64,000 nucleotides of DNA, from assembly GCF_003018255.1 (NCBI RefSeq), contig NZ_CP027440.1; one strand, 5' to 3'. The notes below the pieces were generated by a model. The model did not search any database, was not told the DNA's origin, and saw only the letters and a list, made by a program, of their open reading frames with translations. Origin of the DNA: Escherichia coli. Its GTDB lineage: Bacteria > Pseudomonadota > Gammaproteobacteria > Enterobacterales > Enterobacteriaceae. Below are positions 9,138 through 14,804 of the stretch, in pieces. Every line of letters starts with the position of its first letter. Positions within the stretch are counted from its first letter, which is position 1. The position numbers and the translations under genes were made by a program.

Positions 9138-11102
9138 ATGGCATTTAAACACTACGATGTGGTCAGGGCGGCATCGCCGTCAGACCTTGCTGAACGACTG
9201 ACACAAAAACTGAAGGAGGGCTGGCAGCCATTTGGCAGTCCGGTGGCCATCACGCCTTATACCCTGATGCAGGCCATTGCGGCGGAAGGTGATGTCACCA
9301 CACCAGTGGCGGTGACCGGTAATGAGGGTAAGGTGGTGGCTGTCAGTGCCACCAGCGACCCGGAGTATTACTTTGTTGTGGTTCTGGCAGGGCAGTCAAA
9401 TGGCATGTCGTATGGTGAAGGTCTTCCGCTGCCGGAGACATATGACCGTCCGGACCCGCGCATTAAGCAGCTGGCGCGCCGCAGTACGGTGACACCGGGC
9501 GGTGTTGCCTGTAAATATAACGACATCATTCCGGCGGACCATTGTCTGCATGATGTGCAGGACATGAGCCGTCTTAACCATCCGAAAGCGGACCTGTCAA
9601 AGGGGCAGTACGGTACCGTGGGGCAGGGGCTGCATATCGCCAAAAAATTGCTGCCGTTTATACCGGCGAATGCGGGCATTCTGCTGGTTCCGTGCTGTCG
9701 TGGTGGTTCAGCGTTCACCACCGGAGCTGATGGCACATACAGTGACGCGAGTGGTGCCTCGGAGAATTCAACCCGCTGGGGTGTGGACAAGCCGCTGTAT
9801 AAGGACCTTATCGGTCGAACAAAAGCAGCACTGAAGAAGAACCCGAAAAATGTGCTGTTTGCCGTGGTGTGGATGCAGGGGGAATTTGATTTTGGCGGTA
9901 CGCCGGTAAATCACGCAGCACAGTTTGGTGCGCTGGTTGATAAATTCCGTGCAGACCTGGCGGATATGGCAGGCCAGTGCGTCAGTGGCTCTGCTGGCAG
10001 TGTTCCCTGGATATGCGGGGACACGACGTATTTCTGGAAGCAGAAGAACGAATCCACGTACCAGACGGTGTACGGCAGCTATAAAAACAAAACGGAAAAG
10101 AATATCCATTTCGTACCGTTCATGACGGATGAGAACGGGGTGAATGTGCCGACGAACAAACCGGAAGAAGACCCGGACATTCCGGGTATCGGGTATTACG
10201 GTTCGAAATGGCGTGACAGCTCAGCCACCTGGACGTCACAGGACAGGGCGAGCCATTTCAGCACCTGGGCACGCCGGGGGATTATTTCCGACCGTCTGGC
10301 AACGGCGATTCTGGTGCACGCCGGGAGAACCGCTGAATTCATTACCGGAAAACAGCCTGATATGGTGAAGCCCACCGTACCTTCCGGTGAAGGTCCGGAG
10401 AGAGAGGCGGAAGCCCCGGTCAGTAACCGAACCCTGATGAGTCTGCTGGCATCCGGCGAAGACCTGGCATCACAGGGCTGGCGCTATTATCACAAACCGG
10501 CGGGCGGAGACAGTGTTAACAAAAACATTGCTGAAGCGGTGGTCAGTGATGCGGGGGCTACGGGAGGTAAGGCCCTGCAACTGAACAAACCGGAAAACCA
10601 CATCTGGTTTCTGGAGCATGATGCAGCCGGACAGGGTGCGGAGTTACTGAAGAAGGGCGGACGTGTGAGCGTACGGTTTAAGTTGCCGGGTTCACTGGTG
10701 CCGAATCAGTTTGCCCTGGGCATTTACTGGCAGTTGTCGTCCCTGCCGGAGGGGGTGACGCTGTCAGGAGAAGGTAACGATATGCTGATGTCTTTCTTCC
10801 TGCAGACGGATACGACGAACCTGAACGCGATGCATCACAGGAAGCCGAATGCGAAGCTGGATACATTCGGGGTCTTTGATAACGGATGGCACACGCTGGC
10901 TTTTGAGTTTGCCGGAAACAACAGCATTCAGGTGACACCAGTACTGGATGAGAAACGGGGAGCGGCGTTCACACTGGTGAAGTCACCGGCATCGGGGGCG
11001 GCGGACAAACTGCAACTGACCGATATATCAAAATCGGCGACGTATACGCTGCTGATTGACAGCATTGCGGTGGAAGTGAACAGCACAGACACTGCGGCAT
11101 GA
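9138..11102 (+). CDS. NanS-p-type prophage sialate O-acetylesterase (DUF1737 + SASA esterase + C-terminal lectin-like domain)
   Basis: 654 aa. The N-terminus MAFKHYDVV...GWQPFGSP is DUF1737-like. The block VVLAGQSNGMSYG is a GDSL/SASA-type catalytic motif. It sits upstream of the lysis genes, as for nanS-p genes of EHEC lambdoid prophages. Confidence 0.8.
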   Translation: MAFKHYDVVRAASPSDLAERLTQKLKEGWQPFGSPVAITPYTLMQAIAAEGDVTTPVAVTGNEGKVVAVSATSDPEYYFVVVLAGQSNGMSYGEGLPLPETYDRPDPRIKQLARRSTVTPGGVACKYNDIIPADHCLHDVQDMSRLNHPKADLSKGQYGTVGQGLHIAKKLLPFIPANAGILLVPCCRGGSAFTTGADGTYSDASGASENSTRWGVDKPLYKDLIGRTKAALKKNPKNVLFAVVWMQGEFDFGGTPVNHAAQFGALVDKFRADLADMAGQCVSGSAGSVPWICGDTTYFWKQKNESTYQTVYGSYKNKTEKNIHFVPFMTDENGVNVPTNKPEEDPDIPGIGYYGSKWRDSSATWTSQDRASHFSTWARRGIISDRLATAILVHAGRTAEFITGKQPDMVKPTVPSGEGPEREAEAPVSNRTLMSLLASGEDLASQGWRYYHKPAGGDSVNKNIAEAVVSDAGATGGKALQLNKPENHIWFLEHDAAGQGAELLKKGGRVSVRFKLPGSLVPNQFALGIYWQLSSLPEGVTLSGEGNDMLMSFFLQTDTTNLNAMHHRKPNAKLDTFGVFDNGWHTLAFEFAGNNSIQVTPVLDEKRGAAFTLVKSPASGAADKLQLTDISKSATYTLLIDSIAVEVNSTDTAA

Positions 11103-11236
11103 TAAAAAAAGCCGCCAGTTACCGGAATGGACTGGCGGTGGTAATACCCATGGAGAAATATAAAGGAACGATACTTTCGTGCTCTGTTTTTTTAAATGAA
11201 AACAGTTCTTATTGTCAACAATAACGGTAAGAAATT

Positions 11237-11456: not shown

Positions 11457-11702
11457 ATGTCAGAAATTACATCCCTGGTCACTGCTGAAGCAGTGAAGGA
11501 CGTCCTGCGCTCTGAAGAAGTCCTGAGCGCACTGAAACAGAAACTGCGCCATAAGCTGGAAGCGCGTCTTGATGCAGAAGTGGATGCCATTCTGGATGAA
11601 CTGCTGGGCGCACCGGCAGCTCCGGAGCCGGAAGGCATCGCGGGTGAGGGGAGTGCTTCAGATAGCGGTGACCCCACACCTGACAGCGACATGATGATGT
11701 AA
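11457..11702 (+). CDS. DUF826-like small acidic protein
   Basis: 81 aa from ATG 11457 (internal to ORF 11283..11702): [51 protein letters not shown]... Sits immediately upstream of the holin, as in Stx-type phages. Confidence 0.6.
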
Positions 11703-11779
11703 GCATGCGTCAGGGACCATCGGTGTGTGCCGGTGGTCTTTTTTATTGTTGTGAGCTTCCGGATTGCGGGAGACGGGGT

Positions 11780-11995
11780 ATGTACCAGATGGAAAAAATC
11801 ACAACAGGTGTGTCATACACCACGTCAGCGGTGGGAACGGGCTACTGGTTCCTGCAGTTGCTGGACAGGGTTTCCCCGTCTCAGTGGGCGGCAATAGGCG
11901 TGCTGGGGAGTCTGCTGTTTGGGCTGCTGACATATCTGACGAACCTGTATTTCAAAATTAAAGAAGACCGGCGTAAGGCGGCGCGGGGAGAGTAG
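11780..11995 (+). CDS. class II holin, phage-21 S21 pinholin type, with dual-start motif
   Basis: 71 aa: [71 protein letters not shown]. Very close to the remembered S21 sequence. Met1/Met4 form the dual start. Confidence 0.9.
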
Positions 11996-11998
11996 ACG

Positions 11999-12790
11999 AT
12001 GAATAAACAATACGAACTGGTTGTTAAAGGGATAAATATTTACCCGGATAAGATTACTGTTACTGTGGCGCTGGAAACGGGTGGGTATACGTCACTGTTG
12101 TTGCCAAATGTGGTGATTGATCTTGATCGTGTTGAAGGTGCCCCGCTGGAGTTTTACGAAGCTGAGGCGAAAAAGAAGGCGAAGCAGTTTTTCATGGATA
12201 TTGCTGCCGGGTTATGTGAAGGGAACGAACCGTTGCCGGAAAAGCGCCTCTGTTCAGAAGAGCGGTATACCATACAAATTAACAATGCATATAACACGAT
12301 ACAGTCAGAAAAAGATGATATCGAATCACGCATTGAAAAACTGGAGAACAGCGTCGTTGAACTGAATAAAAAACTGTCGGTGCAGATCCCTTCCGAAGGT
12401 GAAAAAAAACGCCGTGATGAGCAGTTCGCGGCGTTTTACGATTATTGCCGGAAAGTGATGAGCAGAAATCTCGCAGAGTGTTTCCGTATTCAAAAAAACA
12501 GAGAGCGCTCTGCAAATAGTGAGATTCTGGATAATTTTTTAAAGGGGACGCATCTCGCCAGTGATTGTTTCATTGCTCATTCTTTTGGTGGCTTTCATGA
12601 GGCCATCAAACATGATGTTGAGAGAAGTCCAGGTATCCTCTGTTCCATTCCCGTAAGCATCGAAATAGACACAAATACGATAACCGGTGAACTCGTTACC
12701 GCCGGAGTCGGTATATTCCGTCATGAGGGGAACGATGCCAAAGGTTCCTTTACAAAAATCGGGCCGTTCTTTCTGAAGGTAGAGCGATAG
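11999..12790 (+). CDS. hypothetical protein with central coiled coil (cassette gene A between holin and endolysin)
   Basis: 263 aa. SD GGGAGAG; ATG lies 3 nt after the holin stop. The last 84 codons are codon-aligned antisense to gene B, so the true 3' end and function are uncertain. Confidence 0.5.
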   Translation: MNKQYELVVKGINIYPDKITVTVALETGGYTSLLLPNVVIDLDRVEGAPLEFYEAEAKKKAKQFFMDIAAGLCEGNEPLPEKRLCSEERYTIQINNAYNTIQSEKDDIESRIEKLENSVVELNKKLSVQIPSEGEKKRRDEQFAAFYDYCRKVMSRNLAECFRIQKNRERSANSEILDNFLKGTHLASDCFIAHSFGGFHEAIKHDVERSPGILCSIPVSIEIDTNTITGELVTAGVGIFRHEGNDAKGSFTKIGPFFLKVER

Positions 12791-13171
12791 TTTGTTAAGT
12801 ACCCATCCGACAGCTCGCTCATTTTGGTTTATTTTCGTATCGCGAAACAAAAATTCGAAGCGGCCAGATGACGCATGGGTGCAACCAAATACCGGGGCGT
12901 ATTCATCAACCTTTGGTGTTCCTGAAAACATGCAGTCCGTGCTCTCGAATGCAGATGAATTGCTGTTGATCCACTTAACAAAAGAAAAAAAGGTCTGAAT
13001 CGCTTGTCTGTCTGAATATTCAACAAAATCCTCAAGGTGTGTCTCGATCAGTTCCGGGTGTTTACGAAAGTCATAATATTGACCGGGACGATATTTATGA
13101 GTGGTTGTTTTATCCCATGGTTGTGCTCTGCGTCCCTGTAAACGGAGGTCTGCCGCTGGATAGATAAGCAT
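12539..13171 (-). CDS. hypothetical protein (cassette gene B, convergent with gene A)
   Basis: 210 aa from ATG 13171, with SD AGGAG 7 nt upstream (the ORF-track start 13240 lacks an RBS). No family recognised. AT-rich. Confidence 0.6.
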   Translation of the reverse strand: MLIYPAADLRLQGRRAQPWDKTTTHKYRPGQYYDFRKHPELIETHLEDFVEYSDRQAIQTFFSFVKWINSNSSAFESTDCMFSGTPKVDEYAPVFGCTHASSGRFEFLFRDTKINQNERAVGWVLNKLSLYLQKERPDFCKGTFGIVPLMTEYTDSGGNEFTGYRICVYFDAYGNGTEDTWTSLNIMFDGLMKATKRMSNETITGEMRPL

Positions 13172-13301
13172 AAGTAATCTCCTGGTGGAATGTAATCCAC
13201 GATCATCCGGGGAAATTAAGAACCCGCCAGTGCCCACCACTGGTGGGGTGAAGGCTTAACATATCCAGGGATTCGGAACCGATAAATCCTGATAAATATC
13301 C

Positions 13302-13835
13302 ATGAACACCAAAATCAAATACGGCCTGTCGGCTGCCGTTCTGGCGCTGATTGCCGCAGGGGCGCCTGCGCCTGATATTCTCGACCAGTTTCTGGATGAA
13401 AAAGAAGGTAACCACACCACGGCATACCGTGATGGTGCGGGTATCTGGACCATTTGTCGTGGTGCCACCAGGGTGGATGGCAAACCTGTCGTCCCGGGCA
13501 TGAAGTTGTCGAAGAAAAAATGCGACCAGGTTAACGCCATTGAGCGTGATAAGGCGCTGGCATGGGTGGAGAAAAACATCAAAGTGCCACTGACTGAACC
13601 CCAGAAAGCGGGTATTGCGTCATTCTGTCCTTACAACATTGGCCCCGGTAAGTGTTTCAGCTCAACGTTTTACCGGAAACTGAACGCCGGAGACCGTAAA
13701 GGCGCATGTGCTGAAATTCGTCGCTGGATATATGACGGTGGTCAGGACTGCCGTATTCGTTCAAACAACTGTTACGGTCAGGTATCCCGTCGTGACCAGG
13801 AGAGCGCGCTGGCGTGCTGGGGAATCGACAGATAA
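13302..13835 (+). CDS. SAR endolysin (GH24 T4-lysozyme family, phage-21 R type)
   Basis: 177 aa. N-terminal signal-anchor-release segment GLSAAVLALIAAGAPA. Catalytic E-x8-D-x5-T in EGNHTTAYRDGAGIWT. Matches a pinholin partner. Confidence 0.9.
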   Translation: MNTKIKYGLSAAVLALIAAGAPAPDILDQFLDEKEGNHTTAYRDGAGIWTICRGATRVDGKPVVPGMKLSKKKCDQVNAIERDKALAWVEKNIKVPLTEPQKAGIASFCPYNIGPGKCFSSTFYRKLNAGDRKGACAEIRRWIYDGGQDCRIRSNNCYGQVSRRDQESALACWGIDR

Positions 13836-14108: not shown

Positions 14109-14804
14109 ATGAAAGAGATGATTTCTGTCGATCATGAAATATCCATGAGTAGTCTGGATTTTCTGAATAACATTATTAATCCAGCCCGGGCAGAAGCCGG
14201 AGAAGTCCCTCATGAACCGCGTAAGTTTCTTGCAAAAATTGAGGATGAACTTGAGCTTGATGGAACCGGAAAAAAATTCCGGTTAAACAATAACCAGACA
14301 AGAACGGCATACTATGATCTGGATTTTGACCAGATGATGCTCGTTGGCATGAGGGAGTCAAAGGCCGTTCGTCGTTCTGTGCTGGCAAGACTCAAAGCGA
14401 TGCATGGTATTCAGATCCCCCGGACTTTACCTGAGGCGTTGCGATTTGCGGCAAAACTGGCAGAACAGAAAGCAGTGCTGGAAAATCAACTGGCAATAGC
14501 AGCGCCGAAGGCTGAATTTGTTGATAACTATGTTGAAGCATCTGGTCTGATGGGATTCCGGGAAGTTGCTAAGTTACTCGGTATCAAAGAAACCGATTTC
14601 CGGCTGTTTTTGTTGGAGAACGGAATAATGTATCGCCTCGCTGGAAAAATGACGCCTTACTCGCATCACCTGGATGCGGGGCGGTTTAGCGTGAAAACGG
14701 GCGAGGCGGGCAATGGTCATGCTTTTACGCAGGTTAAATTCACCCCAAAAGGTGTTCAGTGGATTGCTGGTCTGCTTGCTGCATGGAGAGCTACCGCAGC
14801 ATGA
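14109..14804 (+). CDS. antirepressor-like protein (KilAC/Ant C-terminal domain) inserted between R and Rz
   Basis: 231 aa. The C-terminal half (AAPKAEFVDNYVEASGLMGFREVAKLLGIKETDFRLFLLENGIMYR) is KilAC-like. Stx-type phages carry an Ant-like gene at this position. Confidence 0.7.
   Translation: MKEMISVDHEISMSSLDFLNNIINPARAEAGEVPHEPRKFLAKIEDELELDGTGKKFRLNNNQTRTAYYDLDFDQMMLVGMRESKAVRRSVLARLKAMHGIQIPRTLPEALRFAAKLAEQKAVLENQLAIAAPKAEFVDNYVEASGLMGFREVAKLLGIKETDFRLFLLENGIMYRLAGKMTPYSHHLDAGRFSVKTGEAGNGHAFTQVKFTPKGVQWIAGLLAAWRATAA

Follow-up and report, generated by a model that had tools for sequence, protein, structure and literature searches.

What separates the pinholin gene S from the signal-anchor-release (SAR) endolysin gene R in an Escherichia coli prophage, and can two reading frames lying there encode proteins from opposite strands of the same DNA? 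The locus belongs to a stretch of 64,000 nucleotides (contig NZ_CP027440.1 of assembly GCF_003018255.1, hereafter the window), in which two open reading frames (ORFs) face each other between the lysis genes: gene A on the plus strand and gene B on the minus strand, overlapping by 252 bp. An earlier description made without database searches (the sequence-only reading) took A and B for one AT-rich accessory cassette, and left undecided whether they form a genuine antisense pair or whether the end of A is a shadow extension. Comparative evidence favours a genuine pair, with a different partner for B. The best overall explanation, to which we give a probability of about 60%, is that a mobile cassette carrying gene B, and within it an antisense ORF termed C, entered a resident ydfR lysis-operon gene, and that gene A would be the resulting fusion of truncated YdfR to C. 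If genuine, B and C would be a rare testable antisense-overlapping gene pair, in which a single stretch of DNA encodes a protein on each strand.

The layout itself stands as first described: the ORFs, their codon-aligned overlap, the ribosome-binding sites and the low G+C content were all found again on reading the sequence. Position 1 of each A codon lies opposite position 3 of a B codon, and position 2 opposite position 2; the TAA stop of B is the antisense of a TTA leucine codon within A, and the TAG stop of A is the antisense of the CTA codon for Leu128 of B. Gene A has its ATG 3 nt past the holin stop, with GGGGAGAG ahead of that ATG, a placement suited to translational coupling to S, as had been proposed. 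Gene B has the ribosome-binding site AGGAG at 13183–13179, 7 nt 5' of its ATG at 13171; the ORF list prolongs the gene to a GTG at 13240, but all homologues begin at the ATG instead. The AT-rich accessory insertion between S and R is also present, with a G+C content of 0.42–0.47 over 12000–13200 against 0.54–0.56 in the flanks.

Gene B, which opposes the late operon, is on comparative grounds a real protein. Full-length homologues of 210–220 aa with 52–65% identity occur in Salmonella enterica and Yersinia enterocolitica, and a profile search of 1.84 billion representatives at E ≤ 1e-3 returned a family of 252 clusters, almost every one of ~200–220 aa and matching end to end. Pseudomonas, Hafnia and Obesumbacterium supply the named members, each of them labelled hypothetical. 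Substitutions between B and its homologues fall most often at codon position 3, then 1, then 2, and AlphaFold, supplied with 64 sequences, predicts an α/β fold with a mean predicted local distance difference test score (pLDDT) of 93.1 and a predicted template modelling score of 0.90. A set of near-invariant polar residues (R15, W19, E47, D48, E76, D79, R104, R110 and N115) suggests an active or binding site. The earlier statement that B belongs to no recognised family also holds, with no match in Pfam, PHROG, PADLOC, NCBIfam or the sequences of the PDB. A Foldseek search of the PDB returned nothing at E ≤ 1e-3, the best fold match in BFVD was to uncharacterised jumbo-phage proteins at a template modelling score of 0.35, which we judged uninformative, and scans of species-representative genomes found nothing. 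These data expose an annotation gap: a confidently predicted fold with 252 related clusters has no Pfam family, and B is left unannotated in the one RefSeq record examined.

By its distribution, gene B behaves as a moron. It is a single gene set against late genes in all five slots in which it was found. In the window it lies between S–ydfR and R, and in another E. coli prophage (L012) a ydfR-like gene and a different holin flank it. Yersinia and many metagenomic and viral contigs have it between tail genes I and J; in L046 it comes after a tape-measure gene, and in a Salmonella prophage remnant it is next to sodC. In the tail operons B occurs without any ydfR gene. The Salmonella enterica remnant (L004, 3713–6633) is degraded, and its B homologue is intact beside a Cu/Zn superoxide dismutase gene of the sodC type, with C broken. 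Distant members of the family lie in gene-poor islands (L021, 451–1473 and 7001–7639; L020, 3692–5038 and 7001–7591), a CAP12-PCTIR TIR-domain gene is found ~5.5 kb from one distant relative, and a ParB_N gene precedes another; no neighbouring gene of these distant relatives recurs across contexts.

Gene A has a different history. The sequence-only reading held that S and R are normally adjacent and that A matches no known family, and neither statement survives comparison with related phages. In the Qin prophage of E. coli K-12 the gene order is essQ–ydfR–rrrQ, with ydfR between holin and lysozyme; the order holin–ydfR–endolysin recurs in PhiR12_1, Stx2 phage 86 and Stx2_95, a ydfR-family gene sits at this junction in many Shiga toxin (Stx) phages, and R directly abuts ydfR in Stx2_95 and in Qin. 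Gene A occupies the same position, after an S21-type holin and before the endolysin. Its residues 1–96 match the DUF1327 family (PF07041) at E 7.5e-34 (116.3 bits against a cut-off of 25), its residues 1–168 cover positions 1–182 of the 183 in phrog_2091, and its residues 87–168 form long helices. The AlphaFold model of A reaches a pLDDT of 71–92 over residues 1–73 and ~70–80 over the first helix. As for function, the only literature report that we found for this family concerns K-12 YdfR, whose residues 1–72 are reported to bind the catalytic half of RNase E and which is reported to co-purify with RNA (PMC13232886).

When the YdfR family is aligned, a common core extends to the motif AECF and is followed by three unrelated C-terminal types: a short tail (proteins of 169–183 aa), a conserved domain of ~125 aa (287–329 aa), and the tail seen in gene A (263 or 305 aa). 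Gene A thus has neither native form of C-terminus and carries ~100 foreign residues instead. At the DNA level, homology to other ydfR genes stops at 12448 (PhiR12_1) or 12495 (Stx2_95), and homology past the insert restarts at 13225/6 (PhiR12_1 and Stx2 phage 86) or at 13296 (Stx2_95). A diverged native C-domain was considered as the source of the tail and rejected, the two giving an hhalign probability of 0.1% though both end in -YLKV--. Because the family diverges after AECF, and given this hhalign result, gene A is taken to be a truncated, chimeric member of the YdfR family. Of 5426 complete E. coli genomes, 1353 have sequence resembling 11999–13240 and 118 have the B cassette, in nearly identical copies; the cassette is also present in 8 of 50,697 phage records. 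Annotation of A varies between records. RefSeq, through its annotation pipeline PGAP, gives only the first 83 codons in NC_013361.1 (L001, 4001–5303), as a DUF1327 pseudogene that is C-terminally incomplete; in Stx phage records (LC5678xx) A is annotated over all of its 263 aa and B is missing.

The foreign tail of A corresponds to ORF C, a plus-strand ORF of ~90 codons antisense to B codons 129–210. The tested region of 82 codons was fixed beforehand by the overlap in the window, and was then examined in diverged homologues. In the codon-aligned antisense frame, stops arise solely from TTA, CTA and TCA codons of B; gene B has six such codons among its 210, all at or before codon 128. By permutation of synonymous codons, the probability of a stop-free run over the last 82 codons is 0.053 in the window alone, which is borderline only. 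The same codons are antisense-open in five further lineages, at 52–68% identity in B, with permutation P values of 0.003 (Yersinia), 0.001 (L043), 0.017 (L044), 0.029 (L046) and 0.010–0.019 (the L049-56 clade), and each of the six lineages with an open C has 5–13 antisense stops in B codons 1–128. The C stop is identical in all open lineages, always the antisense of B Leu128. Moreover, outside the window most C ORFs have a start and ribosome-binding site of their own (in L007/L045, L043, L044, L046, L049-55 and L012). The ATG of C lies 3–7 codons past the B stop in the non-E. coli tail-operon lineages and 21 codons past it in L012, is preceded by AGGAGG, CAGGAG, AGAGG, GGAG or CGGAGAG, and in tail operons sits a short distance past the stop codon of the late gene before it. 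The C product of the tail-operon lineages is 89–90 aa long, with a conserved end, ...VVRYEGxDxEGAFxKxGPFYLKxxR.

Synonymous change in B is also suppressed where C lies. Among C-carrying lineages, identical B residues share a codon 1.65 times as often as composition predicts within the overlap, against 1.13 times elsewhere; sliding-window values are ~1.0–1.2 over codons 31–120 and climb to 1.7–2.0 at codons 121–160, the rise beginning at codons 121–130. Combining three independent lineage pairs gives P = 0.0035, in a test that is pairwise and not tree-aware. In comparisons with Salmonella the effect is much weaker and not significant (1.21 against 1.03); in Salmonella B is intact and C is disrupted by three stops and by a 1-nt deletion close to its start. 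Conserved RNA structure was examined as a cause of this constraint and rejected, RNAalifold giving −16 kcal/mol over 316 nt with a covariation term of +0.45. Distant B homologues (27–34% identity) carry antisense stops in the C region; C is therefore clade-specific, as expected for an overprinted ORF. We regard C as probably a functional coding ORF, a judgement that draws on comparative signals.

These data also identify the tail of gene A. It aligns with the separate C ORFs of 89–104 aa (in L012, L007/L045, L043, L044, L046 and L049-55) at 41–75% identity, or 41–53% for the lineages with C in the tail slot, and it holds the peptide stretches IGPFFLK, SPGILCSIPVSIEIDTNTITGELVTAGVGIFR and HEGNDAK. 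In L012, a ydfR-like gene with the short tail of the family stops ~100 nt before a separate C ORF of 104 aa that has its own Shine–Dalgarno sequence and ATG. Because the tail aligns with C, lacks a start of its own, and C is kept separate in L012, gene A is best read as an in-frame fusion of truncated YdfR to ORF C. The sequence-only reading had named homologues of A that end before the overlap as something that would count against it; such an early end is seen for YdfR itself, which ends at 169–183 aa, continues into an unrelated C-domain or, in L012, terminates short of C, and it is C that is the overlap partner. The overlap as first described is real, but gene A belongs to a known family and is a chimera, in which the overlap partner of B is a cassette-borne ORF fused to YdfR. 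The mobile unit would accordingly be B plus C, which also occurs without ydfR, and not A plus B, the first ~165 codons of A being resident DNA.

A layered origin of the locus, in which a B/C cassette was inserted in a resident ydfR, is very probable. The older layer would be the YdfR/DUF1327 lysis-operon gene, A residues 1 to ~165, translationally coupled to S. The younger would be an AT-rich mobile cassette of ~0.73 kb (~12496/12524 to 13225), inserted in the 3' part of ydfR, where it would have taken the place of the native C-terminal domain of ~125 aa. On its minus strand the cassette carries gene B followed by a terminator-like hairpin, and on its plus strand ORF C, codon-aligned and antisense inside the last 82 codons of B. 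Prophages of Yersinia and other enterobacteria that have the cassette in a tail operon keep C as a separate gene, always in the direction of the late operon; in the window C would have lost its start and been fused in frame to truncated YdfR, giving the 263-aa gene A and the 252-bp overlap.

How such a cassette might be expressed is a further step. B, driven by its own promoter and read in opposition to the late operon, would serve as cargo of the lysogenic phase, and C (here YdfR–C) would come solely from the late transcript formed under Q antitermination. Because B and C share DNA, late transcription would run antisense through B while producing C, and the two products would alternate. We consider this model of alternation or antagonism doubtful. 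The Salmonella remnant, where no late operon is left, has kept B and let C decay, a pattern that would fit a B of use to the host and a C of use to the lytic phage. A more far-reaching picture, likewise doubtful, treats B/C as a self-switching module encoded by the two strands of a single DNA segment. In this picture B would act in the lysogen as an effector, whether an enzyme of benefit to the host or an excluder of other phages, C would be an overprinted antagonist or successor confined to the late phase, and late transcription would silence B by collision and RNA pairing while producing C. The natural variants, with C decayed in the Salmonella remnant, B deleted and C kept in L012, and C fused in the window, fit this picture.

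Several observations weigh against the account given here. A consensus search for a sigma-70 promoter for B found none, only candidates matching 7 of 12 positions, and alternating expression is conjectural throughout. ORF C has no Pfam or PHROG family; the tail of A has a pLDDT of only 23–47, a value that rests on an AlphaFold alignment with no depth over the tail; and even within the overlap substitutions are dominated by the third positions of B, so that B is the dominant frame. The comparison covers only about six lineages, which are not fully independent, and a within-species test is not possible with E. coli copies that are nearly identical. Among the 27 E. coli copies compared, most keep ORFs A and B, but B is frameshifted in four and A is truncated before or within its tail in three; both genes are dispensable, since some copies have lost one or the other in this way. 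An in-frame deletion of 354 bp (window 12004–12357) removes the DUF1327 domain in a further form found in 5 of the 27. In Stx2_499, which has this deletion, a 161-aa ORF keeps the tail and ends at the A stop, the one documented case of tail retention. In L022, A is cut to 140 aa by a frameshift that probably arose in the A8 run at 12402–12409.

The most direct challenge to a functional C is that the overlap is a pure shadow, in which truncated YdfR reads by accident into B antisense, the tail has no function, and the pattern across lineages reflects coincidence or an unrecognised codon bias. The borderline probability in the window, the low-confidence tail model, the dominance of B third positions, the loss of the tail in some E. 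coli copies and in Salmonella, and the pseudogene call by PGAP would all be expected of such a shadow. It would not predict that the same 82 codons stay open in five further lineages, each at P 0.001–0.03, that the stop codon is conserved and lineages have their own Shine–Dalgarno sequence and ATG, or that synonymous conservation rises exactly over C and only among lineages with an intact C, and we consider it unlikely. A subtler alternative, which we hold to be less likely again, accepts translation and denies the product: ribosomes would cover the late mRNA across the antisense insert and so limit Rho-dependent polarity or RNA decay before J or R. This would account for the constant position of C close behind an upstream late gene, in the same direction, and for its modest amino-acid conservation between the window and the tail-slot lineages. 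It does not explain the conserved position of the stop, which still leaves ~380 nt of B antisense and leader untranslated before J or R, nor a synonymous constraint in B that is not flat and peaks over the C-terminal 25 residues of C. Moreover, late transcription under Q-type antitermination in lambdoid phages is generally held to be resistant to terminators.

The proposal with which the locus was first described, a two-gene accessory module of A and B inserted between S and R and acting in defence, exclusion or lysis timing, now appears very improbable. The low G+C content of the insert, the occurrence of B as stand-alone cargo in several prophage slots and the distant relative near a CAP12-PCTIR TIR gene would suit it. 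However, the N-terminal two-thirds of A is a resident lysis gene, one that occurs widely in the absence of B; B itself turns up in settings with no ydfR gene and has no consistent neighbour across contexts. A role in defence in particular finds no support: PADLOC-DB v2 has no match for A or B at E ≤ 1, and among 64 members of the B family there were only three single-member matches, at E ~0.008. The fusion of a resident ydfR to a cassette carrying B and C thus remains our preferred reading. The features of the locus on which it is built are collected in Table 1.

Table 1. Coordinates of the lysis-gene interval in the window, with the basis of each assignment.
Feature	Position	Strand	Basis
S21-type class II holin, 71 aa	11780–11995	+	Pfam PF04971 Phage_holin_2_1, E 7.2e-33, 112.8 bits against a cut-off of 26
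Gene A, 263 aa	11999–12790	+	ORF list
Resident YdfR-family part of gene A	11999–12495	+	Pfam PF07041, phrog_2091, DNA homology to other ydfR genes
DUF1327 domain, gene A residues 1–96	11999–12286	+	Pfam PF07041
Terminator-like hairpin (12513–12498) and T-run (12497–12488), 26 nt 3' of the B stop	12488–12513	-	Consensus scan; pattern match only
ydfR/cassette junction, resembling neither source	12496–12523		Homology to type-ii ydfR runs to 12495 and homology to other B/C cassettes starts at 12527–12530
Gene A tail, residues 173–263, counterpart of ORF C	12515–12790	+	Alignment with separate C ORFs; fused in frame to YdfR
Gene B, 210 aa counted from the ATG at 13171, uncharacterised family	12539–13171	-	Homologues, profile search, AlphaFold, substitution pattern
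A/B overlap, 252 bp	12539–12790		ORF list
Cassette-specific leader of B, including AGGAG	13172–13225	-	Read from the sequence; homology to other S–R slots restarts at 13225/13226
R-proximal segment common to S–R slot variants with a minus-strand ORF	13226–13301		Homologous to PhiR12_1 and Stx2 phage 86
Endolysin, 177 aa	13302–13835	+	Pfam PF00959 Phage_lysozyme, E 5.5e-27

The lysis genes on either side have the expected character. The holin begins MYQMEK, which is compatible with a dual start, and the Gly/Ala-rich hydrophobic stretch at the N-terminus of the endolysin is consistent with a predicted SAR signal. Upstream of the holin, a 654-aa ORF (9138–11102) corresponds to the SASA-family esterase annotated there in related Stx prophages, given in those records as 9-O-acetyl-N-acetylneuraminic acid deacetylase. 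It is followed at 11104–11177 on the minus strand by a weak full-length match to Esr41, a small RNA of enterohaemorrhagic E. coli (Rfam RF02676; 25 bits against a gathering score of 102, E 0.086), probably a chance match or a very diverged copy. A strong terminator-like hairpin of 13 pairs followed by a T-run lies at 11712–11741 on the plus strand, ~40 nt 5' of the holin start. An Rfam scan of 11600–13400 found no known RNA family. Beyond the endolysin, an antirepressor-like gene of 231 aa (14109–14804; Pfam ANT/KilAC, E 2.7e-28) lies between it and the spanin region as a second accessory insertion in the lysis cassette, and is present in Stx1_14040 and Stx2 phage 86 too. A perfect palindrome, CCCACCA-C-TGGTGGG, at 13233–13247 falls within the R-proximal segment, 8 nt off the right-hand cassette boundary at 13225/6, and could be an operator, a recombination site or a chance occurrence.

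The S–R slot holds other minus-strand ORFs in related phages. In PhiR12_1 a different ORF of 86 aa lies next to R (L003, 3215–3475, minus strand) and is annotated DUF1823, without a Pfam match; in Stx2 phage 86 the minus-strand gene next to R is gp06, of 104 aa (L017, 2585–2899), also without a Pfam match. These two phages have a segment of ~75 bp next to R in common with 13226–13300. In Stx2_95 the slot has no minus-strand gene and the R-proximal segment is absent. Judged from these sequences, the slot looks like an exchange point for opposite-strand cargo genes, and the view of S21-type lysis cassettes would be corrected on two points: ydfR normally occupies the S–R junction, and that junction is a hotspot of opposite-strand cargo exchange.

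Among known systems, gene B stands closest to the morons of lambdoid phages, such as bor and lom of lambda, which are independent cargo genes inserted in late operons. Like them, it lies between genes that are adjacent in relatives, R and ydfR in Stx2_95 and K-12 Qin or tail genes I and J, which are neighbours in lambda-type tail operons; its G+C content is below that of its flanks, a terminator-like hairpin follows it, it is opposed to late transcription as bor is, and it is kept in the decayed Salmonella prophage beside sodC. Unlike them, the cassette appears to carry a second, embedded ORF on the opposite strand, no promoter was found for B beyond the 7-of-12 sigma-70 candidates, and the insertion in the window destroyed and re-fused a resident gene rather than landing between genes. 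The interrupted gene resembles the YdfR/DUF1327 protein of K-12 Qin in its N-terminal domain, which scores far above threshold, and in its place after an S21-type holin, and differs from it in having neither native C-terminal form.

For the antisense arrangement, the nearest parallels are the overlapping genes of E. coli O157:H7, laoB, asa, ano, pop/ompA and others, cases reported to rest mainly on RNA-seq, Ribo-seq and phenotypes (PMC5810103, PMC6294744, PMC5960689, PMC7103648, PMC9927249). C resembles them in being an ORF embedded antisense in an older gene and confined to one clade, as expected for overprinting, and the B/C pair differs from them in being known from comparative sequence signals alone. 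It differs also in lying on a mobile prophage cassette, with C positioned for reading by the phage late operon. A precedent for two proteins from one DNA stretch exists in the lambdoid lysis operon itself, where Rz1 is embedded in Rz on the same strand in another frame and both spanin products act together in lysis (the pair is annotated in Stx2 phage 86); B and C, unlike Rz and Rz1, lie on opposite strands.

Functional antisense-embedded genes in bacteria and phages are still disputed, and annotation pipelines discard such ORFs by design. For that dispute the locus offers a compact and favourable test case, in which four comparative signals agree: the open frame, the conserved stop, the separate Shine–Dalgarno sequence and ATG, and the suppressed synonymous change. 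The older and wider B family without the embedded ORF dates the overprint, and natural variants exist in each state, with B only, C only or C fused. Overall, the cassette combines two known kinds of element, the prophage moron and the antisense overprinted gene.

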